This document shows positions 6,916 through 53,045 of a stretch of DNA of 53,045 bases, piece after piece. The notes under the pieces are model-generated. The model did no database searches, had not been told where the DNA came from, and saw only the letters and a program-made list of their open reading frames with translations. Positions within the stretch are counted from its first letter, which is position 1. Each line of letters starts with the position of its first letter. This DNA comes from Escherichia phage AV127. The DNA is taken from sequence record OR352957, one strand, 5' to 3'. Position numbers and translations under genes: made by a program.

Positions 6916-6929
6916 CTTGTATGACCCTC

Positions 6930-7079: not shown

Positions 7080-7296
7080 AATAGTTACTCCTGCTATTAG
7101 TTTCCAGGCGTGGCTACTGCTTCCAATAGCCACTAGTTGAAACTATTACCAGCGTTACTATCAACAAGAAACATGTTACCAAATTGTTAAAGAGCGGTCT
7201 GGTACTATTCGACCAGGTAAAGTTATTATTTGCGCATCTTGACGACGCGCGCCAGACAAGACGCTTGACACATTCATCATTCGTCTTGATGTAATA

Positions 7297-7325
7297 ATTA
7301 TAGGCCAGTCAATCAATGTTGTACA
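7297..7325 (-). promoter_or_regulatory. Sigma70-like promoter TGTACA-N17-TATAAT driving the leftward small-ORF island
   Basis: Minus-strand hexamers read from plus 7320-7325 and 7297-7302. Confidence 0.35.
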
Positions 7326-7370
7326 TAAAAGAATTGCAAGTTTATGCAAGTTTTTAGAAATGATAATCAC

Positions 7371-9558: not shown

Positions 9559-10256
9559 GCCCAGTATACAATACCTCAGTCACGCTGTCCGCAACCGTAG
9601 GGGACGTCAACAAGACAGTTACTGTGGGTTCAACTAACCCGAACCTGTCAGGTGACGACCTGTTACGTCTGGCTAAACGTGCTCTTGAAGATAACGAAGT
9701 GACTGGTACTGAAGGTGTCAGCATTGAGATTAACACCGAGGGGTGTGAAGAAAGCATCAGCATTACTACTTCTGACGATGAAACCAGTGAACAGCTAAAG
9801 TTCAACGACGAACTGGAATATCGCACCGGTGAGATGTTCAGCAGTGCGCTAAACTGGTACTTGTGCAAGGCTTCAAACTATGCTGGCGCTCCTATGTCAG
9901 ACCGTATGTTAGCTGATATGTCAGCTCGCGAAATTGCTAAAGGCTGGGCGCATGTACAGATGCTGCAGGAGCGCATCTGTAAGCTGGAAAGCTGCAATAA
10001 AGATGCGTCTGAGCTTATTACTGCCTATAAGCGACAGATTACTGACCTGCAGCAACTGATGGGCAAACGCGCTGAAGAATATGAGGCTGAGATTCGTAGT
10101 CTTAACGGTACGGCTGTTGCTAACAACCGTGCTTTCAGCGAAGAGCGTAAAGCGCTTATTGCCCAGCGTGACGCTGAAAAACGTCGTGCAGACGACCTGG
10201 CAGACCGTCTTAACTTTATCCGTAAGCACATGGATGCTATGGAAGGGGTAATCTGA
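9555..10256 (+). CDS. Hypothetical protein with coiled-coil C-terminus
   Basis: AAGGAG SD 8 nt upstream of ATG 9555. Confidence 0.5.
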   Translation: MSPVYNTSVTLSATVGDVNKTVTVGSTNPNLSGDDLLRLAKRALEDNEVTGTEGVSIEINTEGCEESISITTSDDETSEQLKFNDELEYRTGEMFSSALNWYLCKASNYAGAPMSDRMLADMSAREIAKGWAHVQMLQERICKLESCNKDASELITAYKRQITDLQQLMGKRAEEYEAEIRSLNGTAVANNRAFSEERKALIAQRDAEKRRADDLADRLNFIRKHMDAMEGVI

Positions 10257-10546
10257 TGGACTTGTTCGATATGGTCGAACATCCTGAAGTAAACGGCTTG
10301 GCGGAAGCTAAGCCTTTTAACTGGGATGAATTCGTAGCAGGCAAACCTGCTGTAACCCACAACGGGCAGATTGCATATTACGGAGGCCATAGCGAACATC
10401 CGATGTGCACTCACCTGTACAACGCTATCACAACCATAGCCGACGAAAACGTTATTAAATACGGAAAAGATGTAATGCCTTTTCTTGTAGATGAGCGCGG
10501 TTACTTCGAAGGTAAATGGTTCCCGTTTCTGGTAGAAATGGCCTAA
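10256..10546 (+). CDS. Hypothetical protein (96 aa)
   Basis: ORF track; ATGA overlap with upstream gene. Confidence 0.45.
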   Translation: MDLFDMVEHPEVNGLAEAKPFNWDEFVAGKPAVTHNGQIAYYGGHSEHPMCTHLYNAITTIADENVIKYGKDVMPFLVDERGYFEGKWFPFLVEMA

Positions 10547-10662
10547 AAACCGGATAAATATAAAGGCGTCTAAGCTAGTTCTTCATCTATATAAGCTACT
10601 TATTCGCCTTTCTACTGTAGACTTTCTCATCATCTCTCTAGACACTTCATTTTTATATTCTG

Positions 10663-10691
10663 TTTACTTACTCCGCGTAACTCGTTATAAT
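10663..10691 (+). promoter_or_regulatory. Late promoter TTTACT-N17-TATAAT upstream of terminase genes
   Basis: TTTACT 10663-10668, TATAAT 10686-10691. Confidence 0.5.
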
Positions 10692-10723
10692 CCCGACTAT
10701 CCGGATTAACGAGGACGATACCC

Positions 10724-11014
10724 ATGGCAAAACCGAAAAAAACCCGTGAGGCAACAGAAGAACTGTTGGCCACGATGCGACGTATCCAGCTGGACCCGTT
10801 GGAAGTTATGCAACGAGCTATCATCCTTGCTGAACGTGAAGACGACTATAAAGCAATGATGGATGGTGCACTGGGCGTTATGCCGTACATGTATCCTAAG
10901 CTGAAAGAGTCCGTTGTCAAAGCAGACATCGACCAGAACTTGTCTGGTAACGGCGTCAACCTGAATATTACAATCGGTGACCAGAAAGTGGTAGATACTA
11001 CTGGGGAAGAGTAA
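10724..11014 (+). CDS. Putative terminase small subunit
   Basis: 96-aa basic N-terminus protein immediately upstream of terminase large subunit. Confidence 0.4.
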   Translation: MAKPKKTREATEELLATMRRIQLDPLEVMQRAIILAEREDDYKAMMDGALGVMPYMYPKLKESVVKADIDQNLSGNGVNLNITIGDQKVVDTTGEE

Positions 11015-11017
11015 TAA

Positions 11018-12466
11018 ATGAATCTTGACTTTCACCTGCATGACAGACAAGGTGCCGCTCTGCAGTCTCAGGCAACTGAGATTCTGTACGGTGGCGCCGC
11101 TGGTGGTGGTAAGTCTCACCTTATGCGGGTAATGTCGATTATCATGTGCTGCATGATACCTGACTTGCAGATTTACCTTTTCCGCCGAAACTATAACGAC
11201 CTTACGGCTAACCACATGGTTGGTCCCACAAGTTATCCTGCCTTGCTGGACGGTATGTGCAAAGCTGGCAAGTGCAAGATTAACTACTCGAGCAACACGA
11301 TTAAATTCTGGAATGGTGCGAACATCAAACTCTGTCACCTCCAGTACGAAAAAGATATTTATACCTACCAGGGTGCGGAGATTCACGTTCTGCTGATGGA
11401 TGAGCTTACTCACTTCACAGAAACGATGTACCGCTTCTTGCGTAACCGTGTCCGACTCGGTGCTCTCAAAGTCCCTGAGAACTTTTTCCGGCCTCTGCCA
11501 CTCATCTTTTGTGGGTCAAACCCCGGTGGTGTAGGTCACAACTGGGTTAAGCGTACTTTCGTAACTGCTGCTCCTCCGATGAAAATCGTTAAGCAGGAAA
11601 AACGCGAAGGTGGTATGGCGCGTCAGTACATACCAGCTAAGATGACTGATAACCCTACGTTGATGGAAAACGACCCTGATTACGGCGACCGTCTTGAAGG
11701 TCTTGGTGACCCGGCTCTTGTTGCGGCGATGAAAGAGGGTGACTGGGATATTGTTGCTGGTGGTGCGCTTGACGACGTATGGTCAACCAAGTGTATTCTG
11801 CCGCGTATGCGTATTCCTAAAGGCTGGACTATCGAACGTTCTCTTGACTGGGGTTCTACTCACCCGTTCTCTGTTGGTATCTGGGCTATCGCAAATGGTG
11901 CGTCGCTTACAGACGACGAAGGCAATGAGTACTTTATTCCGCGTGGTTCCATTATACGTATAGCTGAATGGTATGGGTGCTCTGAAAAAGAAGCTAACAG
12001 GGGCATTAAGTTATCTGCTGCCGAAGTCGCTCAAGGTGTTCTTCGCCTACAGGAAAATCTGCAAGCTGGTGGCTGGATTCAAAGCAACGTTAATCCTGGT
12101 CCGGCTGATAGTCAAATTTATGCGTGCAAGGAAAAAGACGTTGAGACTATCGCGAAGAAAATGGAAGACGAAGGCGTAACCTGGGTCAAGGCCGACAAGT
12201 CACAAGGTTCGAGAATAAATGGCTTAGAGCTATTCCGTCAGCTTCTGAAAAATGTTAAGATGGACGAAACGGAAAAGCCGGGCATTTATTTCATGGAAAA
12301 CTGTCCAGCAGCCATAAACACGTTGCCGGTTCTGCCGCGTGACAAGAACAACACGGAAGATGTCGACACGAACTCTGAAGACCACGTATACGATGACTGT
12401 CGTTACATGGTGTTGCGTGGCATCAACCGTTATACTACCAAGCTCAAAATAAATATGGGACGGTAA
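11018..12466 (+). CDS. terL: Terminase large subunit
   Basis: 482 aa; Walker A GGAAGGGKSH near N-terminus; sits directly before portal. Confidence 0.8.
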   Translation: MNLDFHLHDRQGAALQSQATEILYGGAAGGGKSHLMRVMSIIMCCMIPDLQIYLFRRNYNDLTANHMVGPTSYPALLDGMCKAGKCKINYSSNTIKFWNGANIKLCHLQYEKDIYTYQGAEIHVLLMDELTHFTETMYRFLRNRVRLGALKVPENFFRPLPLIFCGSNPGGVGHNWVKRTFVTAAPPMKIVKQEKREGGMARQYIPAKMTDNPTLMENDPDYGDRLEGLGDPALVAAMKEGDWDIVAGGALDDVWSTKCILPRMRIPKGWTIERSLDWGSTHPFSVGIWAIANGASLTDDEGNEYFIPRGSIIRIAEWYGCSEKEANRGIKLSAAEVAQGVLRLQENLQAGGWIQSNVNPGPADSQIYACKEKDVETIAKKMEDEGVTWVKADKSQGSRINGLELFRQLLKNVKMDETEKPGIYFMENCPAAINTLPVLPRDKNNTEDVDTNSEDHVYDDCRYMVLRGINRYTTKLKINMGR

Positions 12467-12467
12467 A

Positions 12468-14030
12468 ATGTCGATAACCCCAAGCAGCACGCCTAACGTC
12501 GGATACCAGCGTCCTGAGTTGACTAAGAACGCTGGTAAGTACCGAATGATTAAGGACTGCATCGAGGGTCAGGAAGCTGTTAAAGCACGCGGTGATTTTT
12601 ATCTGCCTCGTCCTGACCCTACGAACTGCACAGAAGAAAACCTGATGCGGTACAATTCGTACCTGCGTCGCGCTGTGTTCTATAACGTACTACAGCGAAC
12701 TCTTTCGGGTATGACTGGCCTGGTATTCCAGCAGCAACCTGAGATGCTGATGCCTGATGATATGGAAGTGCTGAAAGTAAATATCGACGGTGCAGGTATC
12801 GGTGCTATTCAGCAAATGCGTAAGTGCTTTAAATCAGTGCTTGCGTTTGGACGAGCAGGATTGCTGACTGATTTTCCAAAAGCACGTATCGGTGAGTTTG
12901 GCGAGTCCATTGGGTTTACCCGTAAAGAACTAATGGATGGAGAAGTGCAGCCGACAGTAACGCTGTACATGCCATGGCAGATTATAAACTGGCGAGAAGA
13001 GTATCGCAACGGTAAAGTGATGCTCACTCAAGTTGTCATTTGCGAGCAAATACCGGGGGTTACTGATGGCTTTCAGCAAGACTACACACCCGTGTGGCGT
13101 CACCTTTACCTGGATGAAGAAGGCAATTGCAACCAGTCTTTGTGGGTCAATAAGGGCGACAAGAACGCGCAGAACGTCTCCGGCGGCGCGGTGTATGTCA
13201 CGCAAGAGAATGTTGTCCTACGCGACTCCAATGGCTTACCGCTGAAGTTTATTCCGTTCCAGTTTATTGGTTCTGAAACAAATAGCGCTGAGATTGACCC
13301 TCCGCCGATGTACGACTTAGCTGTGCTTAATATTGCACACTACCGTAACTCTGCTGACTACGAAGAATCATGCTTCGTAACAGGTCAACCCACAGTATGG
13401 GCTTCTGGACTTACTGAGGCCTGGGTTGAGGATGTGCTTAAAGGTGAACTGCGGCTAGGTTCGTTTGGTGGTATTCCTCTGCCGGCTAATGCTGCTGTAG
13501 GTATCATTCAGACCAGTCCTAATACCCAGCCGTTTGAAGCGATGAAGCAAAAAGAAGCACAGATGATTGCAATCGGTGCTCGACTCATTCGTGAGAATGG
13601 TAAGGTAGAACGACGCGAAGTTGAGATTAAGAACGAAGCTGCATCTGAAGCCTCGCTTATCGTAACTGTTGCGCAGAACGTTGAAGCTGCTTACCGTAAG
13701 GCAATCGAGTGGTGTGGTCTGTTCTACGGACACCCTAAAGAAGAGATTACGATTAACCTCAGCTACAACTTCATCTATAGCCAGTTGACGTATCAAGAAC
13801 GCCAACAGCTGGTTAATGAATGGATTGCTGGCGCTATCACGTTTAGTGAGATGCGTAGTAATCTTAAACAGGCTGGCATTGCTAAACTCACTGACGAAGA
13901 AGCTAAGAAGCTCATTGATGAAGAACTGGCTGAACGTGATGCACGTGAGGTAGCAAAAGAAGCAGAAAAGAACGCTCAAGCAGCTAAGAACAGCGATGGG
14001 CAGGAAAATAATCCAGAAAAAACTGAATAA
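12468..14030 (+). CDS. Portal protein
   Basis: 520 aa between terminase and scaffold; acidic C-terminus. Confidence 0.7.
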   Translation: MSITPSSTPNVGYQRPELTKNAGKYRMIKDCIEGQEAVKARGDFYLPRPDPTNCTEENLMRYNSYLRRAVFYNVLQRTLSGMTGLVFQQQPEMLMPDDMEVLKVNIDGAGIGAIQQMRKCFKSVLAFGRAGLLTDFPKARIGEFGESIGFTRKELMDGEVQPTVTLYMPWQIINWREEYRNGKVMLTQVVICEQIPGVTDGFQQDYTPVWRHLYLDEEGNCNQSLWVNKGDKNAQNVSGGAVYVTQENVVLRDSNGLPLKFIPFQFIGSETNSAEIDPPPMYDLAVLNIAHYRNSADYEESCFVTGQPTVWASGLTEAWVEDVLKGELRLGSFGGIPLPANAAVGIIQTSPNTQPFEAMKQKEAQMIAIGARLIRENGKVERREVEIKNEAASEASLIVTVAQNVEAAYRKAIEWCGLFYGHPKEEITINLSYNFIYSQLTYQERQQLVNEWIAGAITFSEMRSNLKQAGIAKLTDEEAKKLIDEELAERDAREVAKEAEKNAQAAKNSDGQENNPEKTE

Positions 14031-21438: not shown

Positions 21439-21470
21439 AAGCTGGCGCACCCAATAAGAGGATTCTCCAG

Positions 21471-22109
21471 ATGGCAAATCGTACTACAGCCAACCGTCCT
21501 GTTAAAGACGCAGACCTGCGTCAAGAGTCGGTTACTCAGTTCCCGTTATCCAAGCCTACCAAGCTTGACGAGAACGGAAAGTTCATTCCAACTCCAGTTA
21601 CTGGTGTAACTGTTACCCCTGATTCTAAGTCAATTGCTGTTGGTGAGTTTACTACTCTGACAGCAGCAGTAGCCCCGGCAGACGCAGATGACGTCACCGT
21701 ATTGTGGGAAAGTGATACACCTGCTAATGCCACTGTTGATGGTTCAGGTCGTGTTCAGGGTATCAAAGTAGGTTCAGCAACTATTACTGCTCGATCCAAG
21801 CTTGACCCTGCCAAAACCGATACTGTAGCAATTACGGTAACTGCTCCACCTGTAGCTGTCACCGGTGTTACGTTAGCACCTAAGTCGCCCAGCGTTGTAG
21901 TAGGCTATACTGTACAACTGACTGCAACTGTGCTGCCTGCTGGCGCTACTAACAAAGCTGTTACTTACGAATCAAACGACCAGGCTAAAGCCACCGTTAG
22001 TGCAACTGGTCTGGTAACCGGTAAAGCAGCTGGTGTCGTCACCATCACTGTCAAAACAGCTGATGGCAGCTTCACTGACACCGCGTCAGTAACTGTTACT
22101 GCCGAGTAA
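21471..22109 (+). CDS. Ig-like (Big_2-type) domain protein
   Basis: Repeats such as VTGVTLAPKSPSVVVGYTVQLTATVLPAGATNKAVTYESND...ATVSATGLVTGKAAG. Confidence 0.6.
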   Translation: MANRTTANRPVKDADLRQESVTQFPLSKPTKLDENGKFIPTPVTGVTVTPDSKSIAVGEFTTLTAAVAPADADDVTVLWESDTPANATVDGSGRVQGIKVGSATITARSKLDPAKTDTVAITVTAPPVAVTGVTLAPKSPSVVVGYTVQLTATVLPAGATNKAVTYESNDQAKATVSATGLVTGKAAGVVTITVKTADGSFTDTASVTVTAE

Positions 22110-22117
22110 GGAGCTGA

Positions 22118-24250
22118 TTGATGTCGCTTCCACTTAATGAGGTTGTCGACGTCCAGTTCAGTAAGAGCAACGGGGGTAAAGGCTTTACCCCCAGTGTTCC
22201 GCTGGAAGGTATAATGCTTTCCAACTACGAGTACTCAATCGTTGCGGGTGATGACCCTGTTCAGCTAGTTGTGCGTTACATTCCAAACAACGCTACTGAG
22301 CGTGGTATGGCATGGAAATCTAGCGACCCAGATGTTATCACTGTTGATGAGCTCGGATTTGTGAAGCCACTGGCGGAAGGTGTTGCATACGTGACTGGTA
22401 CGTCTGTTGACGGCGGTTATACAGTACGGGCAAAGTTTAACATTGCTCGGGCACCTATCCTTGTTGAATCTGTTACAGTGTCTCCCACAAGTGTGACACT
22501 TGAAGAGGGCAAGACTCAACGCCTGACATACACCTATTTACCTGCTAATGCAGACAAACCTGATTTCTACTGGATTTCAGACGATGAGTCTGTTGCTATC
22601 GTTAACGACAGCGGGCTTGTCACTGCCATTGGAGATGGCGAAACAACTGTAAACGTACAGTACGGTGTTGACAGCTCTATATTCGATAGCTGTACTGTAA
22701 CTGTTATTCCGCCTGTTGTACACGTTACAGGAGTTGAGTTTCTTACTCAGTCGCCTCTTAACGTTAATATCGGAAGCACAGCTGGGACTAGTATTCGTAT
22801 ATCGCCAGAATACGCCACTGATAAAACAGTGACATACGAAAGCAGTGCGCCTGATGTAGCAACTGTGGATACTGACGGAAATGTTACTGGTATTATAGCT
22901 GGTAATGCCACTGTTACTGTTAAGACTAATGACGGTGATAAGACTGACACTCTTGACATTATAGTCAGGGTGCCTGCTGTAAATGTTACCGGTGTAAGTA
23001 TTGACGAAGGCGATACAGCTTCCATGGAAGTTGGAGACACTCTTCAGCTGCATGCCACTGTGACTCCTGAAAATGCTACTGACCCATCTGTTGTATGGAG
23101 TGCTCCTGTATCAGAAGTTGCGTCTGTTACTGAAGCTGGTTTGGTAACCGCTAACGCTGCAGGCTTAATTGATGTTACTGTTATCACTAACGACGGGAAC
23201 TTTACTGACAGAATCGAGGTTAAAGTTACAGACCCAAGTATCGCAGTTACGGATGTTGCATGGGCTCCTGACTCTCCGACTAAAGTAAGCGCTGGCCATC
23301 AGGTGCAGACTAAAATTGTTATAACACCTGACAACGCAACCAACAAAAAAGTCAGTTACAATAGCTCAAACCCTGACGCTGTTACTGTTGACACTAACGG
23401 AGTTATATACGGTCAATCCCCTGGAACTTCGACTATTACAGTTACAACAGACGACGGTGGACTTGAGGCTTCATTTGTAGCGACTTGCACGGAGGTGGCT
23501 GTTATTACACCAGATGGTCTTGGTGGTATTCCAATTGGTGGTACTCAGCAGTTCACTTATACTGTTAGCCCGTCTGATGCGGATCTAACTGATATTCGTT
23601 ACGAATCTGCTAACCCAGCTATTGCAACTGTTGATTCGTCTGGCGTTGTAACTGGTGTTGCTGAGGGCGGATGTAATATCTGGATTTACGCAACTAGTAA
23701 TGGCGCTGACATTAGCGTAGCTACGTGGGCACAAATTTCTGAGAGGGTACAGGTCTATCCGCAGTATGCTGAATGGCTTGTGGGTAACACCAAACAGCTT
23801 GATGTTGAGATCTATCCGTCGGACTCTAAGAGCGTTACTGTTACTTATGAATCGTCAAATGACGCTATCATTAGTATAGATGCAAATGGCTTGATGACTG
23901 CTAAGTCTGAAGGTTCAGCAACTATTACTGCTAACGTTGTGATGAACGGTGTTGCTGCTTCTGGTACAACATCTCCTTACGTGTCTGAGCTTTCTGTTAC
24001 TACCGATTCGCTGCCTGCACTTACTGTTGGCAACACGCAGCAGCTGGTTGTAACTGTTAGACCTGAATACGCTAAGACAGACCCAGGCTATAACATTCAG
24101 TATACAACTACAGACGATACTGTCGCTACTGTAAGTAATACCGGTGTTATTACTGGCGTTGGTAACGGTGGATGTCGTATTGGTGCCACAGTAACTGTGA
24201 GAAATGCTACAGCGTCGGACAGCTCTTATCAGTCCGTCGATGCAGCATAA
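22118..24250 (+). CDS. Multi-repeat Ig-like (Big_2-type) domain protein, 710 aa
   Basis: At least six tandem ~90-aa units with the V.VTGV...L.V...L.ATV.P..AT...V.W.S motif. Confidence 0.6.
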   Translation: MMSLPLNEVVDVQFSKSNGGKGFTPSVPLEGIMLSNYEYSIVAGDDPVQLVVRYIPNNATERGMAWKSSDPDVITVDELGFVKPLAEGVAYVTGTSVDGGYTVRAKFNIARAPILVESVTVSPTSVTLEEGKTQRLTYTYLPANADKPDFYWISDDESVAIVNDSGLVTAIGDGETTVNVQYGVDSSIFDSCTVTVIPPVVHVTGVEFLTQSPLNVNIGSTAGTSIRISPEYATDKTVTYESSAPDVATVDTDGNVTGIIAGNATVTVKTNDGDKTDTLDIIVRVPAVNVTGVSIDEGDTASMEVGDTLQLHATVTPENATDPSVVWSAPVSEVASVTEAGLVTANAAGLIDVTVITNDGNFTDRIEVKVTDPSIAVTDVAWAPDSPTKVSAGHQVQTKIVITPDNATNKKVSYNSSNPDAVTVDTNGVIYGQSPGTSTITVTTDDGGLEASFVATCTEVAVITPDGLGGIPIGGTQQFTYTVSPSDADLTDIRYESANPAIATVDSSGVVTGVAEGGCNIWIYATSNGADISVATWAQISERVQVYPQYAEWLVGNTKQLDVEIYPSDSKSVTVTYESSNDAIISIDANGLMTAKSEGSATITANVVMNGVAASGTTSPYVSELSVTTDSLPALTVGNTQQLVVTVRPEYAKTDPGYNIQYTTTDDTVATVSNTGVITGVGNGGCRIGATVTVRNATASDSSYQSVDAA

Positions 24251-25487: not shown

Positions 25488-25910
25488 ATGATCATCGATT
25501 CTTCTGAATGCGTGTTGAGCCTGAATGGTGTTCAGCTGTCCGACTGGGCAGACGGTGCCGATGTCATTGACGTGCAATGGGTGGACCCAGCTTCCACCTA
25601 TCTTGCAGGTGCAGATGGCAATGGCATTCAGATTATGAACCCGTCCAAAGCNNCTATCAAGGTTAAGCAAAATGGTCCGGATGCCAAATGGCTTAACGAC
25701 CAGTACAACCTGCAGCGTAACAACATTCGTGGATTTGTCCCGTTTGTGCTGCAAGCCAAAGACCTGCTAAACCAGGATTTGGCATGGGGCAAAAAAGGTT
25801 ACTTTACCGATGGTTCCCCGTGGACTCGCGGTAACGGCCATAACCCGACTACCTTCGCTATTGTGTTCCACCAAGGTGGTATGCAGTTGACTGAAGGCTT
25901 TGACCAGTAA
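25488..25910 (+). CDS. Putative tail tube protein (contains 2-nt N gap at 25651-25652)
   Basis: 140 aa after sheath-like gene. Confidence 0.5.
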   Translation: MIIDSSECVLSLNGVQLSDWADGADVIDVQWVDPASTYLAGADGNGIQIMNPSKXXIKVKQNGPDAKWLNDQYNLQRNNIRGFVPFVLQAKDLLNQDLAWGKKGYFTDGSPWTRGNGHNPTTFAIVFHQGGMQLTEGFDQ

Positions 25911-29095: not shown

Positions 29096-29511
29096 TGATA
29101 TTTACCACAACNNNNNNNNNNNNNNNNNNNNNNNNNNNNNNNNNNNNNNNNNNNNNNNNNNNNNNNNNNNNTATTTACGACTTGGAACCTACCTCCGAAG
29201 GTAAGCAATCAATATCAATTTCTACCGCTGGATATACGTATAACATTGAGTTGTACTATAACACGGTAGGTCAGCTCTGGCAGGCTACAGTGACTGACAT
29301 ATCAAGTAATGCTGTACTTTGTTCCAGTTATGCTTTACAATATGGGCGTATTGCTTTTGGTAACTGGGACACGCGTATAGCGTTGCTGGTAAGTGACAAA
29401 TCCTCCAGCCGCATCGGTCCTATGACTACAGATGACATGGGAGGACGTTGCAGTGTCTACATCGTCGACAAAACAGCCTACCCGTCAGTTTGGCCGCGCG
29501 TTAAAGCTTGA
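29095..29511 (+). CDS. Hypothetical tail protein interrupted by 60-nt N gap
   Basis: ORF track; N-run 29112-29171 makes frame and length unreliable. Confidence 0.3.
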   Translation: MIFTTXXXXXXXXXXXXXXXXXXXXXIYDLEPTSEGKQSISISTAGYTYNIELYYNTVGQLWQATVTDISSNAVLCSSYALQYGRIAFGNWDTRIALLVSDKSSSRIGPMTTDDMGGRCSVYIVDKTAYPSVWPRVKA

Positions 29512-37051: not shown

Positions 37052-37066
37052 ATTAGCGTTTACCTT

Positions 37067-37276
37067 TTAGTTCGTTATACTGCGCACACGCCGCACACAA
37101 TACTGTACCAGGTAAAAGCTGACGCCTCTTTTCTTCAATATCATCCCACACTGGTAGCACGTCAGCGGGCTTACGCCTGTATATCTGACACGGTTTGACA
37201 GTGCTGCTTCACGGGCCACTTGTTCAGCTTCTGCCGCCATATCATTAAGGTCTGATGTGCGTGTAGTTTCAATCAT
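37067..37276 (-). CDS. Hypothetical small protein (69 aa)
   Basis: ORF track; last gene of minus-strand block. Confidence 0.35.
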   Translation of the reverse strand: MIETTRTSDLNDMAAEAEQVAREAALSNRVRYTGVSPLTCYQCGMILKKRGVSFYLVQYCVRRVRSITN

Positions 37277-40559: not shown

Positions 40560-41542
40560 TTATACGGCCATTTGGAGTTTGATGTTTGGCATTGGTTTGT
40601 ACTTCTCAACCATTGGCGCAACATCGGTAGGAGTGAAGTCAAATACTGACACGTCATAAATCGCGTTAATGTCAGGACGACCTTCAAAGTTAGTGTCCAG
40701 TGTAGTATCAGAATTGCTTACGATACGTTGCAGGAAAATCTTTGCCGCATCGATATGATTCTGATAGATGTGATAGTCACCCAACGTAACAGTCATATCA
40801 CCTACCCCAGTACCCAGCTCAGCAGCAATGGTAATCTGCAGCATTTGATGCAACAGAATATCGTGAGGCAGACCCAGAATAACATCCGCGCTACGCATGT
40901 GGAACATCAGCTCTAATTCATTACGGTTGTTAATGAACAGCTGAAAACCATGGTAACAAGGCGGAAGGGCCATGGCGTCCATCTCTTGTGGGTTCCACGC
41001 CGTAATGTACGCCCTGCGGTCAGTAGGCTTAACCTTCAGCGTTTCAATAACATCTTTAAGCTGGTTAGTAAGAACACCATTCTTATAGAAAGGCTTAATC
41101 CATTGCACGCCGTATACCGGACCTAAGTCACGGTTGTCTGGTGTACCCCAACGTTTGTTTGCATCCTGCAGGTTACCTTCCCACCAGTTGCAGCCAAAGC
41201 CTTTGAGCGTGTCGACGTTTGAAATGCCGTTGATAAAGCAGTAAAGCTCAGCAGCAACAGCTTTGATGTTAACAGGTTTAAACACCGGCACCATCAGTTT
41301 GTTGTCGTTGAAAGCCAGTTTAAACGCTGTACCAAAACAACGGCGGGTNNNNNNNNNNNNNNNNNNNNNNNNNNNNNNNNNNNNNNNNNNNNNNNNNNNN
41401 NNNNNNNNNNNNNNNNNNNNNNNNNNNNNNNNNNNNNNNNNNNNNNACCAACACCTGTACGGTCTACAACATCCTCACCTTTACGCAGGATAAAAGAAAT
41501 GATGTCGCTGTAAAGAGAATCGACAGTGCTGTATGTTTTCAT
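40560..41542 (-). CDS. Thymidylate-synthase-fold pyrimidine C5-modifying enzyme, predicted dCMP-directed; interrupted by 98-nt N gap
   Basis: DRTGVG, LGPVYGVQW, DRRAYITAWNPQEMDAMALPPCYHGFQ; Asp in GLPHDILL where ThyA has Asn (GLPFNIAS). Confidence 0.65.
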
Positions 41543-45708: not shown

Positions 45709-46587
45709 TTATTTTAAGGAAAGTTTAACGGGCTTCTCATCCTGCGGGAAGACATCAGCAGGTCGATAATCATCACAAGCTGCTAATTGCTCTTCGAGTG
45801 TTTCGAGCTCTTTCTGGTGCTTGTTACAATACCACACTTTGCCCTGAAGCGGTTTACTATAGTGGCAGGTTCTGCAGTTCCTGTCGGGCATTGCTCCTTT
45901 GTGGCATAAGTGGTGGTACGTGCACATTCCTGGCTTGCACTCCCACCAAATAGGCGATTCAGAAATCTTCGGCATATCCAAACCAGATTCCGCATATACG
46001 ACAGCCTCTGCTTTGCTCAGTTGTATGTCGCTTTCCAGTAAGTCAATCTCGACCACTTCAAAATACATCTCATCGGTGTTCTTGTTAATTGCAATATACA
46101 CAGCTTGATTCAGCTTAAGCTTCCGCATGTATACCTGCATTTGAGCATAGTGCACCGGCTTACTGGCTTTAACAGACTTGAGCTTGATTAGCTCTTTAAA
46201 CGACTTATCACCATGCGTTTTGAATTCAGCAAGTGCCCAAACGCCTTTGTATTTGATTACACAGTCACAAGACCCAGAGAAGATGTCATTGAAGTCGTGT
46301 ATGCGCCACTGCTTACCTGTTTTAGGGTTGACGTCCAGCACTTCATCACATACGGAACGAAGCCACTTCACAATTCTGCTTTCTTCAAGGTTACCACGTT
46401 CAAACAGACGAAGTTGCTTAGCGGTAAACTTCTCCTTGAACGACCAATGCAGAACGTGCCAAAGATAGCGATAGCAGTTGTGTCCTATCTGCGATGCTCC
46501 AAGATGCCCGCGTCGTTCTTCTCTTTCGTGGGCTTCGACTATCTTGACATCAATACGTTTCTGCAGGTCGTCAAACGGACTGGGCAT
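45709..46587 (-). CDS. RecB-family (Cas4-like) PD-(D/E)XK nuclease with 4-Cys cluster
   Basis: Start ATG 46587 with GAGGAG SD; D...LAEFK motif; one N-terminal and three C-terminal Cys (CKPGMCTYHHLC). Confidence 0.45.
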   Translation of the reverse strand: MPSPFDDLQKRIDVKIVEAHEREERRGHLGASQIGHNCYRYLWHVLHWSFKEKFTAKQLRLFERGNLEESRIVKWLRSVCDEVLDVNPKTGKQWRIHDFNDIFSGSCDCVIKYKGVWALAEFKTHGDKSFKELIKLKSVKASKPVHYAQMQVYMRKLKLNQAVYIAINKNTDEMYFEVVEIDLLESDIQLSKAEAVVYAESGLDMPKISESPIWWECKPGMCTYHHLCHKGAMPDRNCRTCHYSKPLQGKVWYCNKHQKELETLEEQLAACDDYRPADVFPQDEKPVKLSLK

Positions 46588-47056
46588 CGTTAAACTCCTC
46601 AATGCTGAATTCATCGTATACAATATTATGTGCCCACAAATGAGCGACGGCATTTGCCATGCTATCCTTCCATTTGGATTGTGAAGCTGTATGTGCCAAT
46701 GCAACTACACGTACCAGGTTAAGGTTGGCTATCAGCATGTTAGCACAATGTTCGCACGGCGGGTAGGTTATGTAGATGGTAACCGGGCCTAACGAAGGAG
46801 TGTCTAGCTCTCTCCTTATATTAGCTAAGGTGTTTATCTCGCTATGAATAGTTAGAGCGTTCTTGAGGCTATTAGGCACTATTCTTATAGAGTCTAGCTG
46901 CGTAGGTAAGCCGTTATATCCAGTGGAAATAATACGCTTGTTCTGGTCTACAAGAACGCTACCGACCTGGCGTTTCGGGTCATTCGACCAGCTTGCAACT
47001 TCACAAGCTATGCGCATAAACCGCCTGTCCCACTTGTCCATCTTCTTCTTTTGCAT
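46571..47056 (-). CDS. dCMP deaminase (cytidine/deoxycytidylate deaminase family)
   Basis: Zinc-binding motifs HSE and PCEHC. Confidence 0.7.
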   Translation of the reverse strand: MQKKKMDKWDRRFMRIACEVASWSNDPKRQVGSVLVDQNKRIISTGYNGLPTQLDSIRIVPNSLKNALTIHSEINTLANIRRELDTPSLGPVTIYITYPPCEHCANMLIANLNLVRVVALAHTASQSKWKDSMANAVAHLWAHNIVYDEFSIEEFNDAQSV

Positions 47057-47078
47057 GGTAGTCTCCGTATACGAAAAT

Positions 47079-47094
47079 AGGGGCCGAAGCCCCT
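47079..47094 (-). promoter_or_regulatory. Intercistronic RNA hairpin GGGGC-UUCG-GCCCC between SSB-like gene and dCMP deaminase
   Basis: Same 14-nt core as 40538-40551; lies at the left edge of the tandem duplication. Confidence 0.55.
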
Positions 47095-47769
47095 ATTGAA
47101 TATCTACTCGGCAGGGATTACTCTTCCCAAGGAGCTGCTTCACCGTCATCAGCACCAGGTGCCGTTGCAGTAGCATTCGCCTTCGTTGAAGTACCCGCAC
47201 CTGCACCTACTTTCTTCGTCGTCGATGCAGTTGCTTGAGACTGACCGCCTACTGCAGTAGTTGCTTCAGTTGACGCTTTGTATTCACGAATATCGTTCTG
47301 TGGGTCGTACTCACCGGTCTTGTCAACGCGAATACCTACTTTGCCAGCTACGATACGGTTTTCCAGCATACCAGTAGAAGTCAGTTCAACAATACCCAGA
47401 GCACGGCACAATGCAGACAGTTTGCGCCGAAGCCCCTATTGAATATCTACTCGGCAGGGATTACTCTTCCCAAGGAGCTGCTTCACCGTCATCAGCACCA
47501 GGTGCCGTTGCAGTAGCATTCGCCTTCGTTGAAGTACCCGCACCTGCACCTACTTTCTTCGTCGTCGATGCAGTTGCTTGAGACTGACCGCCTACTGCAG
47601 TAGTTGCTTCAGTTGACGCTTTGTATTCACGAATATCGTTCTGTGGGTCGTACTCACCGGTCTTGTCAACGCGAATACCTACTTTGCCAGCTACGATACG
47701 GTTTTCCAGCATACCAGTAGAAGTCAGTTCAACAATACCCAGAGCACGGCACAATGCAGACAGTTTGCG
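47084..47769. repeat. Tandem direct duplication, two 343-bp units (47084-47426 and 47427-47769)
   Basis: Units read as identical; junction CAGTTTGCG|CCGAAGCCCC. Confidence 0.85.
47118..47411 (-). pseudogene. Truncated duplicate of the SSB-like gene 3' half (97 codons, no proper start)
   Basis: Protein identical to C-terminus of 47461-48006; upstream frame hits a stop at the duplication junction. Confidence 0.55.
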
Positions 47770-48006
47770 ATGACCGATTTCAACAGCTTGTGAGTTAGGG
47801 TTGGAGTAAGTAATCATGTCAAACACAACACGGTTAGCGAACTCACCTTCCTGCACTTTCAAACGCAGGGACAGATAAGAACCGGTGCCTGCTTTAGTCG
47901 GCTTCAGCTCAACCTCTTCAATCATGAAGTTGTACCAGCCTTTCGGGATCGGGTCAAAAGACTGTTGCGGTTCGACGGTAGAGCTGTTGAAGTTTAATTC
48001 AGCCAT
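47461..48006 (-). CDS. Putative ssDNA-binding protein (Sak4-associated type)
   Basis: 181 aa with low-complexity T/A/G linker and acidic-aromatic tail ...DDGEAAPWEE; next to RecA-like ATPase. Confidence 0.4.
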   Translation of the reverse strand: MAELNFNSSTVEPQQSFDPIPKGWYNFMIEEVELKPTKAGTGSYLSLRLKVQEGEFANRVVFDMITYSNPNSQAVEIGHRKLSALCRALGIVELTSTGMLENRIVAGKVGIRVDKTGEYDPQNDIREYKASTEATTAVGGQSQATASTTKKVGAGAGTSTKANATATAPGADDGEAAPWEE

Positions 48007-48113
48007 TGTTTGGTATCCTGTTTAAGTTTAGTTTAATTTCGTTTAACGCTTTACCGGCAGCGTTCGGCCGTGATGCTTATTATACGCCACTTTTTATCAT
48101 GGCGTAAACACTT

Positions 48114-48998
48114 TTATTCGCCGGATTCTTTTTCAGCTTGAGCAGCTTTCTTCGCCATCCAGGCTTGGTGCTTCTCTTTCGATTCGTCTGAACCGATTTT
48201 AGTGAGTTGCACATTCGGGTCGTCGTTCTGCATTTGCTCTGCAGCTCGACCAGTCAGAAGCAGGTAGCTGTCTGACTCCGGATGATAATACCACAGCTGG
48301 TAAGGATGATAGCCTTGTAGCTTATCATAAATCCAGCCCAGATCTGCAGGTTCACGTGCATCCAGTTCACGGCCTGGTGCGTTACGGCACTTAGCTTCCC
48401 ATTGATAGTCAGGTTGTGTCTGAATATAACGTTCGCTGTTACCGTTGGCGTCTGGTGCAGTCATACGCAAAGCAAGTACCGCATCCATAAGATACGGCAA
48501 CTGTTTAGGTAACTGCTGGCCTGGCATAAGAGGTGAGTACAACATTGCACCAGTAACCTCGTCCTTGTTCTTCTCAAGCTTGCACAAGTATGCAACGCTG
48601 AAAGGCAAGTCACGGAACTGGCGCATGATGTACATCATCTTGTCGTTGGTGCTACCATACGCCTGTCGTTTGTCGTTAACCTGCGACTTCTCGTAGTCCA
48701 GACAAACCTCAGCTACATATGACAACGAGTCGAAAATCAGATGCTCATACTTCTGCGCATCCTTACTTTCGGTAAGCCATTTGTATAACGCCAGAATGTC
48801 GTTGAACGTATTGATTGGTGTAGAGTCAATGTCAGCGTCTGCAATTGACATCAAACCGCCTTCAGCATTAATGACAAGAACCTTGTCATGAGGCAAGGTC
48901 TTAGCCAGGGTTGTTTTACCAACACCTGACGCGCCGTAAATAGCGACCTTAGGTCGCTTATTTTCTACGGCTTGTTTAGTAGATACAATCTGAACCAT
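48114..48998 (-). CDS. Sak4-like RecA-fold ATPase
   Basis: Walker A GASGVGKTT near N-terminus, about 290 aa, adjacent to SSB-like gene. Confidence 0.5.
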   Translation of the reverse strand: MVQIVSTKQAVENKRPKVAIYGASGVGKTTLAKTLPHDKVLVINAEGGLMSIADADIDSTPINTFNDILALYKWLTESKDAQKYEHLIFDSLSYVAEVCLDYEKSQVNDKRQAYGSTNDKMMYIMRQFRDLPFSVAYLCKLEKNKDEVTGAMLYSPLMPGQQLPKQLPYLMDAVLALRMTAPDANGNSERYIQTQPDYQWEAKCRNAPGRELDAREPADLGWIYDKLQGYHPYQLWYYHPESDSYLLLTGRAAEQMQNDDPNVQLTKIGSDESKEKHQAWMAKKAAQAEKESGE

Positions 48999-49228
48999 TA
49001 ATGATAGTCCTCGTAAAGTGATTCTTCATCGCAATACATACGATAAAGAGCTTCTTCGGCTTCTTCCAGAGTGTCGAACTCCTCGCCACAGACGGAGTAC
49101 GTTGTGGGTTCATCAAATGACTCGACGATGTGCCAGTCATGATGAACGCCATATGTCAATAAATCGCAGTTATCTTTTGCGACAAGCTTACGTGTTGAAC
49201 GAAATTGCTCGATAGTTTGGATGCTCAT
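48998..49228 (-). CDS. Hypothetical small acidic protein (start at internal ATG)
   Basis: GAGGAG SD precedes ATG 49228 (MSIQTIEQ...). Confidence 0.4.
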   Translation of the reverse strand: MSIQTIEQFRSTRKLVAKDNCDLLTYGVHHDWHIVESFDEPTTYSVCGEEFDTLEEAEEALYRMYCDEESLYEDYH

Positions 49229-49255
49229 ATTCTCTCTCCTCATGTGTATGAGGAT

Positions 49256-49285
49256 ATTATACACCACTTACATGTGATATGTACA
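49256..49285 (-). promoter_or_regulatory. Early promoter TGTACA-N18-TATAAT with GTGGTG upstream of -10
   Basis: Minus strand reads AAGTGGTGTATAAT. Confidence 0.4.
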
Positions 49286-49288
49286 CTA

Positions 49289-49735
49289 CTATTTTACACG
49301 AACAGCTTGACACGATAAACGCGACAAACCGAGATTAGCTATAACGCCATCAAGCAATACGCCTGCATGCTCTTCATTGTATGCTTCTACCCACAAAGGG
49401 ATGGTTACGCCTTTCATATGGTCGCTGTATACGTTGAACGTAAACAATTGTTTGTGTGCTTTGTCAACACGCACAACAGTAAGATTACCATCCTCGCGTG
49501 ACGGAAGCTCAACGCCGTTATTACTCCAGAAGTTACGGAACTCGTCGCTGTTAACAATACCATGCACGACACGTTCTGTAAGTTCTGTTTTGAGGTCAGC
49601 ACGTGCCTTTGTACTGATAAAGAAACGACAAGAGAAGAAGGCATTGACGTTTAGCACATCGACAGCATACACAACGTTATGCTCTTCAGTAGTTGGCGCT
49701 TTATAAACAATATATTTAGTTTTGAACAGGTCCAT
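49289..49735 (-). CDS. Hypothetical protein (148 aa)
   Basis: ORF track. Confidence 0.45.
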   Translation of the reverse strand: MDLFKTKYIVYKAPTTEEHNVVYAVDVLNVNAFFSCRFFISTKARADLKTELTERVVHGIVNSDEFRNFWSNNGVELPSREDGNLTVVRVDKAHKQLFTFNVYSDHMKGVTIPLWVEAYNEEHAGVLLDGVIANLGLSRLSCQAVRVK

Positions 49736-49783
49736 AGTACTCTCCAGGGAGGAAGACTGGCGGGCTTGTACCCGCCAAAGTTA

Positions 49784-50689
49784 TTACAGCAGTTCTGCTT
49801 TAAGTGCAGCGATACCATCGAGCAACGCTTTGATGTCAGGGTTAGATGCTGCCAGGTCTGCAACAACTGACTGACGACGACGTTCCAGCTCTTTCTCAAC
49901 TTCCAGGTCGAGGCGTGCTGATGCTTCACGCAGTAAGTCTTCAACCTGCTGACGACGCTGGTACTTGTTAAAGTCAGGTACATCAACCAGCCATTTGAGA
50001 GTCGCAGTGTTATAGCCAGAAGTATTGGCTGCACTTACAGACACAACATCAACCAGCTTGGTACCGTTCAGCTCCGGATAGTTAACATTGCGAACGTCAA
50101 CAACCGCTTTGTCACCTACACTTACTTTGCCGATGTACTTGTAAGTGTACACACGACCATTCGGTTCAAACTTAACACCGACGAACTTCAGTTTATCGTC
50201 GGCAATAACTTCTTCTTCAACTTTGAAGTTGATTGCTGTGTTCTTGACAGGTGCAGCTGCTTTGAGCTTAGCAACCATGTACTGTTCGGAATGAGCAGGA
50301 CGGCACAGACGGAATACGTCTTCATTGTACGTCAGCCAGTTACCGGTTTCGTCCATGCATGCAATCTGATTAGTGCCATCCAGCGAACGAACGCCAGGGC
50401 GATTCTTCTCAACACGATACAGCTTACCTTTTTTCAGGTTAGCATAAGAACGGCGGGCGATACCCCAGTTGTGTTTTTCAGATTCATACTTAGCGAAACG
50501 GTCAACACTGAAGTTCTGCTTCAGACCGCGGTCGTCAATTACCCATAAGTTATCGTAAGCACCGCCGAAAGAACCCAGGTTGGCATACACTTTGCCCTGC
50601 GTCAGCAGGGAAGTGTTTCCCTCGTCAACACAGATAACAAAACCCAGAGCTTCGTGTGCTTTACCGCTGCGGTCAAATACTGTAGTCAT
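49784..50689 (-). CDS. Hypothetical protein (301 aa)
   Basis: ORF track; coiled-coil C-terminus. Confidence 0.45.
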   Translation of the reverse strand: MTTVFDRSGKAHEALGFVICVDEGNTSLLTQGKVYANLGSFGGAYDNLWVIDDRGLKQNFSVDRFAKYESEKHNWGIARRSYANLKKGKLYRVEKNRPGVRSLDGTNQIACMDETGNWLTYNEDVFRLCRPAHSEQYMVAKLKAAAPVKNTAINFKVEEEVIADDKLKFVGVKFEPNGRVYTYKYIGKVSVGDKAVVDVRNVNYPELNGTKLVDVVSVSAANTSGYNTATLKWLVDVPDFNKYQRRQQVEDLLREASARLDLEVEKELERRRQSVVADLAASNPDIKALLDGIAALKAELL

Positions 50690-50803
50690 TTCTTGTTTCC
50701 TTGTATACCAGTTTGATTGTATGCCAGAGATATTCCCTGCGCATGTGCTTTATTGCTTAACCGTTAAAGACATTATGTCATTAGTGAGTGGTGACGTACA
50801 CAT

Positions 50804-51094
50804 TTATTTTAAGGCAGAAGTGCAAATAGCATCACACAAACAATAATGAGCACGGTCGTAGTCCTCAAACAGGAACACTTCACCATTGGCGACTACTTCT
50901 GTATCGTTAACATGCAGGTCAATACCCGCATGGATGAGTACGTCCATAGCCTGGTCCTTGTTCTTATACGGATCCCAAATAAGCTGGAAGCCTGACCCAC
51001 AAAGGAGACAACCTTTGAGCTCCGGAAGAGATGACTCTTTCACAGTCACATTACAAATCTTAGCCAGCTTAGCGCGAGAATCGAGAGTGCTCAT
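50804..51094 (-). CDS. Hypothetical Cys-containing protein (96 aa)
   Basis: ORF track; 4-nt overlap with upstream gene. Confidence 0.4.
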   Translation of the reverse strand: MSTLDSRAKLAKICNVTVKESSLPELKGCLLCGSGFQLIWDPYKNKDQAMDVLIHAGIDLHVNDTEVVANGEVFLFEDYDRAHYCLCDAICTSALK

Positions 51095-51393
51095 TTACAT
51101 TTACCTTTACATTTGTGTGGAGGTGTATATGTTTTCTTCGGTACGCCGAACATGGCGGCATAGGTACCGACTTCTTTCTTTGTTGGCTTATCCACAATCT
51201 CGTCGGCCACGATAAAGTCTGGTCTGAGGGCACGACCTGTACAGCCAAAGACTTCAGCCGCTCTTTTCTCAACAGGAGTAAAGTCAATAACCAGCTCTTT
51301 GCCTATCAGACTTTCTTTGAACTTGTCAAATAGCCATTTGTCACGCGGACCAAGATTGCCCATAAACATAACATGCATCTGCTTATTGCCCAT
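51091..51393 (-). CDS. Hypothetical protein (100 aa)
   Basis: ORF track. Confidence 0.4.
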   Translation of the reverse strand: MGNKQMHVMFMGNLGPRDKWLFDKFKESLIGKELVIDFTPVEKRAAEVFGCTGRALRPDFIVADEIVDKPTKKEVGTYAAMFGVPKKTYTPPHKCKGKCK

Positions 51394-51461
51394 GGATGAT
51401 ATACCCCGTTATTTGTGTTGCCAGGTACAAGCCGTATACCACACACCCAACTAGTATGGCA

Positions 51462-51761
51462 TCAAGAATCAGATGAGCTATCTTCACGTTTGACTACCAC
51501 GTTACGGCTGTTAACCACTTCCAGGCTAATACCATCATCTTTGTGGGCTACACGAATAAATGCAACACCTTCGAGTTGTGCCTGTTCAATAGCTTTATTC
51601 AGCACGGCATTATCCTGCACCATATGACGTACACGAGGAAGGATATTGCAAAGTGGTTCCATCTCGTCCATTCCTGCAGTACGCATAATTGACTTGAGAA
51701 TGCCGAGGTGGTGACGGTAACGGTCTTCAACATTATACTTCTTGCCGTTATGCTTTAACAT
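51462..51761 (-). CDS. Hypothetical protein (start at internal ATG)
   Basis: GGAGG SD before ATG 51761 (MLKHNGKK...). Confidence 0.45.
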   Translation of the reverse strand: MLKHNGKKYNVEDRYRHHLGILKSIMRTAGMDEMEPLCNILPRVRHMVQDNAVLNKAIEQAQLEGVAFIRVAHKDDGISLEVVNSRNVVVKREDSSSDS

Positions 51762-51769
51762 GAAAGCCT

Positions 51770-51799
51770 CCAAAAGTCAGGGGGCTTGTGCTAAGCCCC
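51770..51799 (-). terminator. Hairpin GGGGCTT-AGCAC-AAGCCCC plus U-tract, possible attenuating terminator
   Basis: Read directly on minus strand; overlaps SD of the next gene. Confidence 0.35.
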
Positions 51800-51814
51800 G
51801 TTTAATTACTCGGC

Positions 51815-52255
51815 TTATTCCGTATCTGCCGGTGTGAATGTTACAGTCGGAATACCTGGTGAAGTCTTCACAACAGGGTCGACGATAGCCAGCTGTTCTG
51901 GTGTCAGGTTACGATACGCAGTAACTGACATTTCGTACTTGGTTTTAAACAGCTTGGCAACAACAGTCTTCGGTAACTTCTTCATTACGTCAGGCACAAG
52001 CTTCTGATCAAGTGAGCGGTTAACCTTCTGCTCAACCTTGAGTTTACCAGGTACGCCATGCATGCTGAACTCAACCGTTTGTGTACCTTCTTTACCGCGG
52101 TTGATAATCATGTCGCGTTCAAGACGAGCCTTAATGGTCCGGCGCAACGTCTCCTGGTCAGCTTTCGCTTGTGCCATCCAGCGGTTCAGATTCGCCAGCT
52201 TGTCGTACAGCTGTTCCGTGTCCATCGATTCCAGTTCTTGTGGGGTCAGTGCCAT
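51815..52255 (-). CDS. Hypothetical protein (start at internal ATG)
   Basis: GAGGAAA SD before ATG 52255 (MALTPQELESMD...). Confidence 0.45.
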   Translation of the reverse strand: MALTPQELESMDTEQLYDKLANLNRWMAQAKADQETLRRTIKARLERDMIINRGKEGTQTVEFSMHGVPGKLKVEQKVNRSLDQKLVPDVMKKLPKTVVAKLFKTKYEMSVTAYRNLTPEQLAIVDPVVKTSPGIPTVTFTPADTE

Positions 52256-52526
52256 CAGTTGTTTCCTCAGGTTGCATGTGTATAGTTGCACCGATCAGTA
52301 AGCAATAGTTATTGAACATTGTACGTAGGGCTTGGCCCGCAGCAATATCCGTTACGTCTATTATACCACTTTTAGTGGTGACGCGTAAAGCTTTTTCTTT
52401 CTTTGTTTTTTCCACGAATGCAATGCTGATGATTTCTTCCGCATGGATTACGTGGATGGTACCTGCAAACTCACCAGTCTTAGCTGGCGCCTGGTACACT
52501 AACGACATAGACGGTTGGTTACTCAC
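52158..52526 (-). CDS. Hypothetical protein (122 aa); its 3' part overlaps the next promoter and gene
   Basis: ORF track; AGGAG before GTG 52526; true extent uncertain. Confidence 0.3.
   Translation of the reverse strand: MSNQPSMSLVYQAPAKTGEFAGTIHVIHAEEIISIAFVEKTKKEKALRVTTKSGIIDVTDIAAGQALRTMFNNYCLLIGATIHMQPEETTDGTDPTRTGIDGHGTAVRQAGESEPLDGTSES
52350..52379 (-). promoter_or_regulatory. Early promoter TTTACG-N18-TATAAT with CACCAC...GTGGT inverted repeat
   Basis: Minus strand reads TTTACGCGTCACCACTAAAAGTGGTATAAT. Confidence 0.45.
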
Positions 52527-52536
52527 TTAATTGCTC

Positions 52537-52974
52537 CTATTTATATAAGTCCATCCAGTTACGATACTCGTCATAAAACCGGTCAAACTCGTTTTTGGTG
52601 AGTGCAATAGCAACACCATTTACCAGATGCATGGTTCGTGTTTTGATGTTGACATACATGACATTGCTGTACGGAAATAAGCTACCGTCATTGTCAGTGA
52701 AATAAGTAGGTGTAATATGAAGCGCATCACGCAATGCAACCAGTGATTCAACAGCTTCAGCGTGCCATTCACGTTTGAAGGTCATGCAAGGCGGTGCACC
52801 GTCTTCGTCCTGGGTACCGCGCAAAGTAAGGTATACAATTTCGGCAGTATCATTGTGTACAATTACGCTAATGTCAACGATGTCGCTGGTACGGAAGGTA
52901 ACAAAGTGCTCTTCAATTACTTGTTCGTCGGTATTAGGGCTGACGCCCTGAAAGGTCTTGAGTGTGTGAAACAT
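52537..52974 (-). CDS. Hypothetical protein (145 aa), first gene of the minus-strand early block
   Basis: AAGGAG SD 8 nt before ATG; 5' end lies in the terminal repeat (also present as 1-156). Confidence 0.5.
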   Translation of the reverse strand: MFHTLKTFQGVSPNTDEQVIEEHFVTFRTSDIVDISVIVHNDTAEIVYLTLRGTQDEDGAPPCMTFKREWHAEAVESLVALRDALHITPTYFTDNDGSLFPYSNVMYVNIKTRTMHLVNGVAIALTKNEFDRFYDEYRNWMDLYK

Positions 52975-53045
52975 TGGTTGTATCTCCTTAGCAGAATATA
53001 CGTCTATTATGTATATAAAGGAGGGGAAAGTAAATAGATATAAAT
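52819..53045. repeat. Terminal redundancy copy 2 (direct repeat of 1-227)
   Basis: Exact identity to window start; unit length 52,818 bp. Confidence 0.9.

Follow-up and report, generated by a model that had tools for sequence, protein, structure and literature searches.

The region between positions 47084 and 47769 of the window, by which we mean the whole stretch of 53,045 nucleotides in the record of Escherichia phage AV127 (OR352957), raises the question of whether this phage carries the 3′ end of one of its genes twice, or whether the second copy was introduced when the record was put together. A preliminary description of the letters alone had reported a perfect 343-bp tandem duplication with identical units at 47084-47426 and 47427-47769. 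This is borne out by Tandem Repeats Finder, which returned one array (47083-47769, period 343, 2.0 copies, 100% matches, no indels, score 1374), and by base-by-base extension, in which the maximal identical run is 344 nt (47083-47426 against 47426-47769). The unit is consequently 343 nt long, a single G at the join being ambiguous, and the coordinates first given are a valid phasing of it. The two copies are 100% identical, lie head-to-tail and are exactly adjacent, and the join between 47426 and 47427 contains no N. Chance origin is ruled out since the probability of an exact 343-nt match is about 4^-343. The only further exact repeat of at least 20 nt in the window is the 227-nt identity of its two ends. 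The novel junction, at 47412-47441, reads GCAGACAGTTTGCG followed by CCGAAGCCCCTATTGA, with the one G at the join ambiguous, and the string diagnostic of the two-copy join is GCAGACAGTTTGCGCCGAAGCCCCTATTGA.

The duplicated sequence is derived from an intact gene of 181 codons at 47461-48006 on the minus strand, assigned as a DUF669/phage SSB-like gene by Pfam, PHROG and identity to phage SB2. Residues 5-117 of its product match Pfam PF05037 (DUF669) with an E-value of 8e-14 and 52.4 bits against a gathering cutoff of 21, and the protein matches PHROG 6015 (7e-37) and PHROG 378 (1e-7), both named 'single strand DNA binding protein'. Orthologues are called SSB in RefSeq. The label SSB-like used in the preliminary description is thereby upheld as an assignment by homology at the level of annotation (DUF669, PHROG 6015 and the RefSeq annotation of relatives), and a sequence search of solved structures with the protein gave no match (best E = 0.35, irrelevant). 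The 181-aa protein is 100% identical to that of phage SB2, the only other place where this exact sequence is on record. All genes of the region are on the minus strand. The SSB-like gene is flanked on one side, immediately upstream, by a gene for a Sak4-like AAA_24 ATPase, an ssDNA annealing protein (48114-48998; Pfam PF13479, 6.6e-28; PHROG 124, 7e-51), and on the other side by a dCMP deaminase gene immediately downstream (46571-47056, minus strand; Pfam PF00383, 3.7e-21) and by Cas4-like exonuclease and helicase genes.

Copy 2 of the unit (47427-47769) is the 3′ part of the intact SSB-like gene, and copy 1 (47084-47426) is promoter-distal to it on the transcribed minus strand. The start of the unit coincides exactly with codon 80 of the gene, and the unit length is not a multiple of 3. 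Only one of the breakpoints falls within the gene, so that the full-length gene survives. What copy 1 holds is codons 80-181 without a start, the stop codon, 34 nt of 3′ untranslated sequence, and the 5′ arm and loop of a terminator. The truncated second copy of the 3′ end accordingly comprises the last 102 codons (47118-47435, minus strand) in a frame that is open from a TAG at 47436-47438. The in-frame starts available to it are a TTG at 47411 and an ATG at 47369, neither of which has a Shine-Dalgarno-like motif, while the true start of the SSB-like gene has AGGA at -13. The ORF at 47118-47411 (97 aa from the TTG) had been described as identical to the C-terminal 97 residues of 47461-48006 and as lacking a proper start, and both statements are correct. 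No gene call matching the product of this truncated ORF was found in public assemblies. Expression of the truncated copy as a gene is unlikely, given that its starts are without a Shine-Dalgarno-like motif and its product is called in no public assembly. A known structured RNA within the unit was also considered and rejected, since Rfam gave no family over the repeat region and the single match was far below threshold.

The left boundary of the unit coincides with a structured element between the SSB-like and dCMP deaminase genes. An intrinsic-terminator-type hairpin, AAUAGGGGC-UUCG-GCCCCUAUU followed by a U run, is located at 47076-47097 on the minus strand, as judged from folding and conservation. 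Folding gives a 9-bp stem with a UUCG loop, and with the U run included the element reads AAUAGGGGC-UUCG-GCCCCUAUUUU. The hairpin, with its UAUUUU tail, begins 20 nt past the stop codon of the SSB-like gene, and the boundary of the unit lies within it, at the stem pair adjoining the loop. At the internal junction GCGCAAACUG stands in place of the 3′ arm, leaving an orphan half-hairpin at 47427-47440 (minus strand) that consists, in the RNA sense, of the 5′ arm and loop only. It follows that an intact terminator is found only downstream of the truncated copy, and none stands directly behind the intact SSB-like gene. The preliminary description of a GGGGC-UUCG-GCCCC hairpin at the boundary, intact at the left copy only, therefore holds for position and state and has to be amended for the stem, which at 9 bp is longer than was claimed.

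The position and structure of the hairpin are kept in three distant relatives (loci L007, L008 and L009) with compensatory changes in the stem, which reads CAGGAGC-TTCG-GCTCCTG or GGGTAGC-TTCG-GCTGCCC, and the T run is retained; the SSB-like proteins of these relatives are 67-76% identical to that of the window. The hairpin is thus a real conserved element, and on the strength of its sequence pattern it is a predicted Rho-independent terminator. A simple consensus terminator scan did not list it, and folding and comparison were used instead. Throughout Rosemountvirus and in more distant relatives (L005-L009, at about positions 2570-2600), the UUCG tetraloop and the T run of this hairpin are invariant. 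Perfect hairpins with a stem of at least 9 bp number only 12 in the genome, and two endpoints placed at random would have a probability of about 0.7% of hitting such a hairpin at least once, or 1.4% when stems of at least 8 bp are counted.

The window is a Rosemountvirus genome, from a myovirus of Salmonella and Escherichia resembling Salmonella phage BP63, and copy number could be compared across this group. The closest deposited relative over the repeat region, among the matches listed, is phage SB2 with 98.2% identity. The GenBank relatives listed span 2,085-2,088 bp against a query of 2,428 bp, apart from phage UPF_BP2, which is longer for other reasons. Their span is about 343 bp short of the query, which indicates a single copy in each of those listed, and SB2 also has one copy despite its identical SSB-like protein. 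A 120-nt probe centred on the junction was contiguous in none of 42 GenBank records, its halves mapping to both ends of one 344-bp stretch. Six relatives in IMG/VR showed no duplication, and the junction 30-mer was absent, as was a strain-specific 41-mer, from IMG/VR, from GTDB genomes (one per GTDB species) and from JGI metagenomes. The duplication is accordingly unique among about 50 relatives. A recurrent hotspot common to the relatives was considered and rejected, since none of them carries a repeat at this site and the extra length of UPF_BP2 is due to different duplications in neighbouring genes.

Comparison with SB2 also bears on whether two strains were joined at the repeat. From 47013 to 48039 there are no differences between the window and SB2 (0 over 684 non-redundant nt, the 343-bp unit being counted once), and no mosaic or SNP discontinuity is present at the junction. 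There is therefore no support for a chimera of two strains joined at this point, the change in SNP density lying at about 47012, away from the join. That change is sharp: 28 differences from SB2 are found in the 574 nt of 46439-47012, within the dCMP deaminase gene. Judged from the sequence pattern, the shift suggests a recombination (mosaic) boundary some 70 nt from the repeat unit.

The quality of the record as a whole is relevant to the origin of the repeat. The window is a draft scaffold of several contigs in which gap lengths were estimated and a circular end overlap was left untrimmed. It contains three runs of N. A gap of 2 N at 25652-25653 corresponds to 11 nt in relatives (25 of the 25 listed span 710 against 701), and one of 60 N at 29112-29171 corresponds to 36 nt (all 25 listed span 677 of 701). 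The third, 98 N at 41349-41446, lies inside the thymidylate synthase gene and corresponds to 0 nt, every listed full-length relative spanning 903 bp, that is 1001 minus 98. When SB2 proteins were compared with the window, the flanks of this gap abutted exactly in SB2 with no residue missing, and the left flank departs from SB2 at its third-last base (GGCGgGT against GGCGtGT). All three runs are mis-sized with respect to every relative checked, which identifies them as estimates of a scaffolder, with errors of -9, +24 and +98 nt. The possibility that the N runs mask real sequence was rejected: no relative checked agrees with their lengths, and 98 N stand for 0 nt in the gene of a conserved enzyme. 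In addition, a 1-nt deletion in a C run at about 37145 (CCCC to CCC; compared with SB2 only) frameshifts a conserved gene for a regulator of 74 aa. The pattern, a one-base loss in a homopolymer, probably reflects a sequencing error and could be a real mutation. The frameshifted gene, at about 37056-37276 on the minus strand, encodes a transcriptional regulator that is annotated in UPF_BP2 as a DksA-like zinc-finger protein.

The two ends of the record add a further defect. Positions 1-227 are identical to 52819-53045, and this overlap lies at SB2 coordinates 49694-49920. Relatives read straight across this place, which shows that the 227 bp are an untrimmed circular overlap and do not represent a physical terminal repeat. 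Once the end overlap and the second copy are subtracted, the record amounts to 52,475 bp, the usual size for the genus. Untrimmed circular overlaps are the usual source of perfect direct repeats in records of small genomes; that of the window measures 227 bp and that of SB2 264 bp. The SB2 record (OP745622.1) has its untrimmed overlap at 1-264 and 52935-53198, corresponding to a different place in the genome, at about 3242-3504 of the window. When a record is rotated, or pieces are pasted together, without trimming, an end overlap is turned into a tandem duplication in the interior. Since a single rotation removes the terminal overlap, the presence of both an internal and a terminal repeat in the window implies at least two pieces or processing steps. 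Formally, the window is composed of A (1-47426) and B (47427-53045), where the end of B equals the start of A and the end of A equals the start of B.

Genuine terminal repeats are known in this genus and are of another kind. The direct terminal repeats of fHy-Eco03 are 3,699 bp long and hold 11 small genes (PMC8145870), and the record of vB_SalM_Sz has perfect repeats of 4,263 bp at both ends. The latter map to about 3.55-7.66 kb of the window, just after the primase gene and some 40 kb from the unit. This region is present once in the window, and was hence collapsed by the assembly. It consists of small minus-strand genes (about 3550-7660) and is the most divergent part of the genome, with 82-94% identity and many indels. 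The direct terminal repeats of Rosemountvirus (3.7-4.3 kb) resemble the unit in being perfect direct repeats in the same type of genome. They differ from it in place (about 3.5-7.7 kb of the window against 47.1-47.8 kb), in size (about 4 kb against 343 bp) and in nature, being a block of small genes at both ends of the molecule, whereas the unit is the 3′ end of one gene repeated in tandem.

Probable false tandem duplications have a precedent within the genus. The RefSeq record of UPF_BP2 (NC_048649.1/KX826077; 54,894 bp) contains six direct repeats within about 10 kb, ranging from 172 to 1,084 bp. Four of these are exactly tandem, copy identity is 94-98%, and the record as a whole has 1 N. 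Two annotated CDS stand for each of the Cas4-like exonuclease and Sak4-like genes, which are split by the repeats of 421 and 172 bp. Three of the six repeats were compared with other genomes, and each maps to one single-copy site. The repeats are probably co-assembled variants, i.e. false duplications in a reference genome, and the case indicates that N-free false tandem duplications occur in deposited records of this phage group. UPF_BP2 resembles the window in that repeats of a few hundred bp, exactly tandem and N-free, lie in its replication/recombination module as well. It differs in that its copies diverge by 2-6% and in that the two repeats examined in detail are wholly intragenic and split genes, whereas the copies in the window are identical and leave all genes intact. 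The individual UPF_BP2 repeats, at record positions 3233-13010, measure 534, about 1,074, 667, 421, 280 and 172 bp.

More generally, 'duplicated overlapping contigs' are a documented class of artefact, and duplications within one contig are rarely mis-assemblies (Kelley & Salzberg 2010, PMC2864568), while in homotype false duplications the copies are connected through gaps or through faulty gap filling (Ko et al. 2022, PMC9516828). The window agrees with this class in that the copies are adjacent on one scaffold and identical, relatives have a single copy, a false partial paralogue is created, and the scaffold has gaps of wrong size together with other defects of draft quality. It differs in having no gap between the copies. 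Also, the two studies concern diploid vertebrate genomes, in which haplotype divergence is the main cause, and the copies in the window are identical. A literature search for gap closers that make tandem duplications yielded nothing more specific than the study by Ko et al.

Taken in this setting, we consider it likely that the second copy is a false 'homotype' tandem duplication which arose from a contig join or gap fill and is absent from the phage genome. The preliminary description had offered an assembly artefact or a very recent duplication; these remain the only two live explanations, and the uniqueness of the repeat and the draft defects favour the former. Several independent defects in the same record point in this direction, and 100% identity of the copies is what is expected if both derive from the same reads. 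Furthermore, judged from the biology of direct repeats, instability of a 343-bp direct repeat is to be expected in a phage with its own Sak4/SSB/exonuclease recombination module. As to how the false copy came about, we infer a gap-filling mechanism. A contig would have ended or started at the GC-rich terminator hairpin, and the scaffolder would have placed a positive gap between contigs that in truth touch or overlap, just as it put 98 N for 0 nt into the thymidylate synthase gene. A gap filler may then have walked reads from one contig until the estimated gap was full and joined the next contig, or two pieces with 343 nt in common may have been pasted end to end. By both routes the same 343 nt would be written twice with no N between. 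By the gap-filler route one boundary would be the old contig end and the other would be arbitrary. In the thymidylate synthase gap an erroneous base at the contig tip may have blocked extension, so that the Ns stayed, and the 227-bp end repeat of the record may be a product of the same carelessness.

Several observations speak against an artefact, and most of them fit the alternative that the duplication is genuine, very recent and either fixed or highly frequent in the phage stock that was sequenced, which is possible and in our judgement unlikely. The junction is clean and N-free, with exact unit boundaries, though the other three joins in the record carry N runs, one of them of just 2 N, and perfectly identical overlaps are normally merged by assemblers. 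Nor is there any SNP discontinuity at the join. A real duplication in a short-read graph would give exactly such a contig, since a loop in the assembly graph made by real junction reads would be expected to resolve to the very sequence of the window. A breakpoint in a conserved hairpin with a 9-bp stem is improbable by chance (0.7-1.4%), polymerases are known to stall at structured DNA, and template switching during replication could explain this position as well as a drop in coverage does. Spontaneous tandem duplications in phage and bacterial genomes arise by illegitimate recombination or template switching. A genuine event would have followed this route, using 0-1 nt of homology to join a point in the hairpin with one lying 343 nt upstream, within the SSB-like gene of a sister or concatemeric copy. 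The head-to-tail arrangement with a 1-nt overlap at the junction, the endpoint in a hairpin and the identity of the copies, which would mark a recent event, are shared with such duplications. Every gene is left intact, and the genus packages fixed long terminal repeats, so that 0.6% of extra length should be tolerated. Against a genuine origin stands the finding that none of about 50 relatives and none of the collections searched contains the repeat, along with the several independent assembly defects of the record. The copies show zero divergence, and evolutionary persistence is therefore not demonstrable; unlike established spontaneous duplications, the repeat shows no sign of inheritance or selection and no second independent occurrence. 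A selective benefit is not apparent either, since the truncated copy is without a start codon bearing a ribosome-binding site, and fixed perfect duplications of about 343 bp are rare in phage isolates.

The remaining explanations carry little weight. The junction may have been made in the library, as a template-switch chimera formed when multiple-displacement or PCR amplification stalled at the GC-rich hairpin and then assembled, in which case the duplication would be real in the data and not in the virus. Amplification chimeras at structured sites are established, the breakpoint does lie in a stable hairpin, and a clean N-free junction is compatible with read support; chimeric reads are, however, normally a small minority that is removed by coverage filters, and there is no sign that the sample was amplified, which makes this origin very unlikely. 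It is scarcely credible that the molecule's physical ends lie at the repeat, as a direct terminal repeat of short length that was read in tandem through ligated ends or a concatemer junction. A perfect repeat of a few hundred bp in a group that packages with direct terminal repeats offers a formal resemblance only, while the repeat of the genus is 3,699 bp (fHy-Eco03) or 4,263 bp (vB_SalM_Sz) and maps about 40 kb away, and the unit is situated within a coding gene in the central part of the replication operon. A concatemer junction at the unit was rejected on the same grounds.

The feature is of an already known kind whether it is an artefact or a recent duplication, and the consequences of the two differ. 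If the second copy is false, as we favour, the genome has a collapsed length of about 52,475 bp with a single SSB-like gene and the terminator immediately behind it, which is the arrangement of every relative. Taken at face value, the record leads gene callers to report a spurious partial SSB paralogue, makes the genome too long by 343 bp (duplication) plus 227 bp (end overlap), and lets the terminator seem displaced from its gene. The practical value of the observation is that of a quality-control flag: the contig of the window and the UPF_BP2 reference genome need re-finishing. If the duplication were real, the SSB-like gene would be intact and its mRNA would gain an untranslated extension of 343 nt, with transcription reading through the orphan half-hairpin and stopping or pausing at the intact terminator 343 nt further on. 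Such a change would be neutral or slightly costly, and quick loss by homologous recombination would be expected. It would then represent a small, datable case of hairpin-associated illegitimate recombination in a virulent Salmonella phage, of modest interest.

One may also speculate that a real duplication has been kept for a function, either because the shifted terminator alters mRNA stability or downstream read-through, or because a C-terminal fragment competes with the full-length protein. In the read-through variant the targets would be the dCMP deaminase, exonuclease and helicase genes. In the fragment variant, low-level translation of the start-less copy would yield a piece of the protein bearing the acidic tail (...DDGEAAPWEE), and this piece would compete for the partners of the SSB-like protein. 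We regard retention for function as highly improbable.

Diverged repeats, as distinct from the perfect one discussed here, were noted elsewhere in the window. Two neighbouring genes at about 21470-24250, which are tail or structural genes homologous to SB2_0028 and SB2_0029, have multiple diverged internal repeats of a common domain of about 130-170 aa with 32-45% identity. One of these homologues is annotated in UPF_BP2 as a structural protein with an Ig domain.
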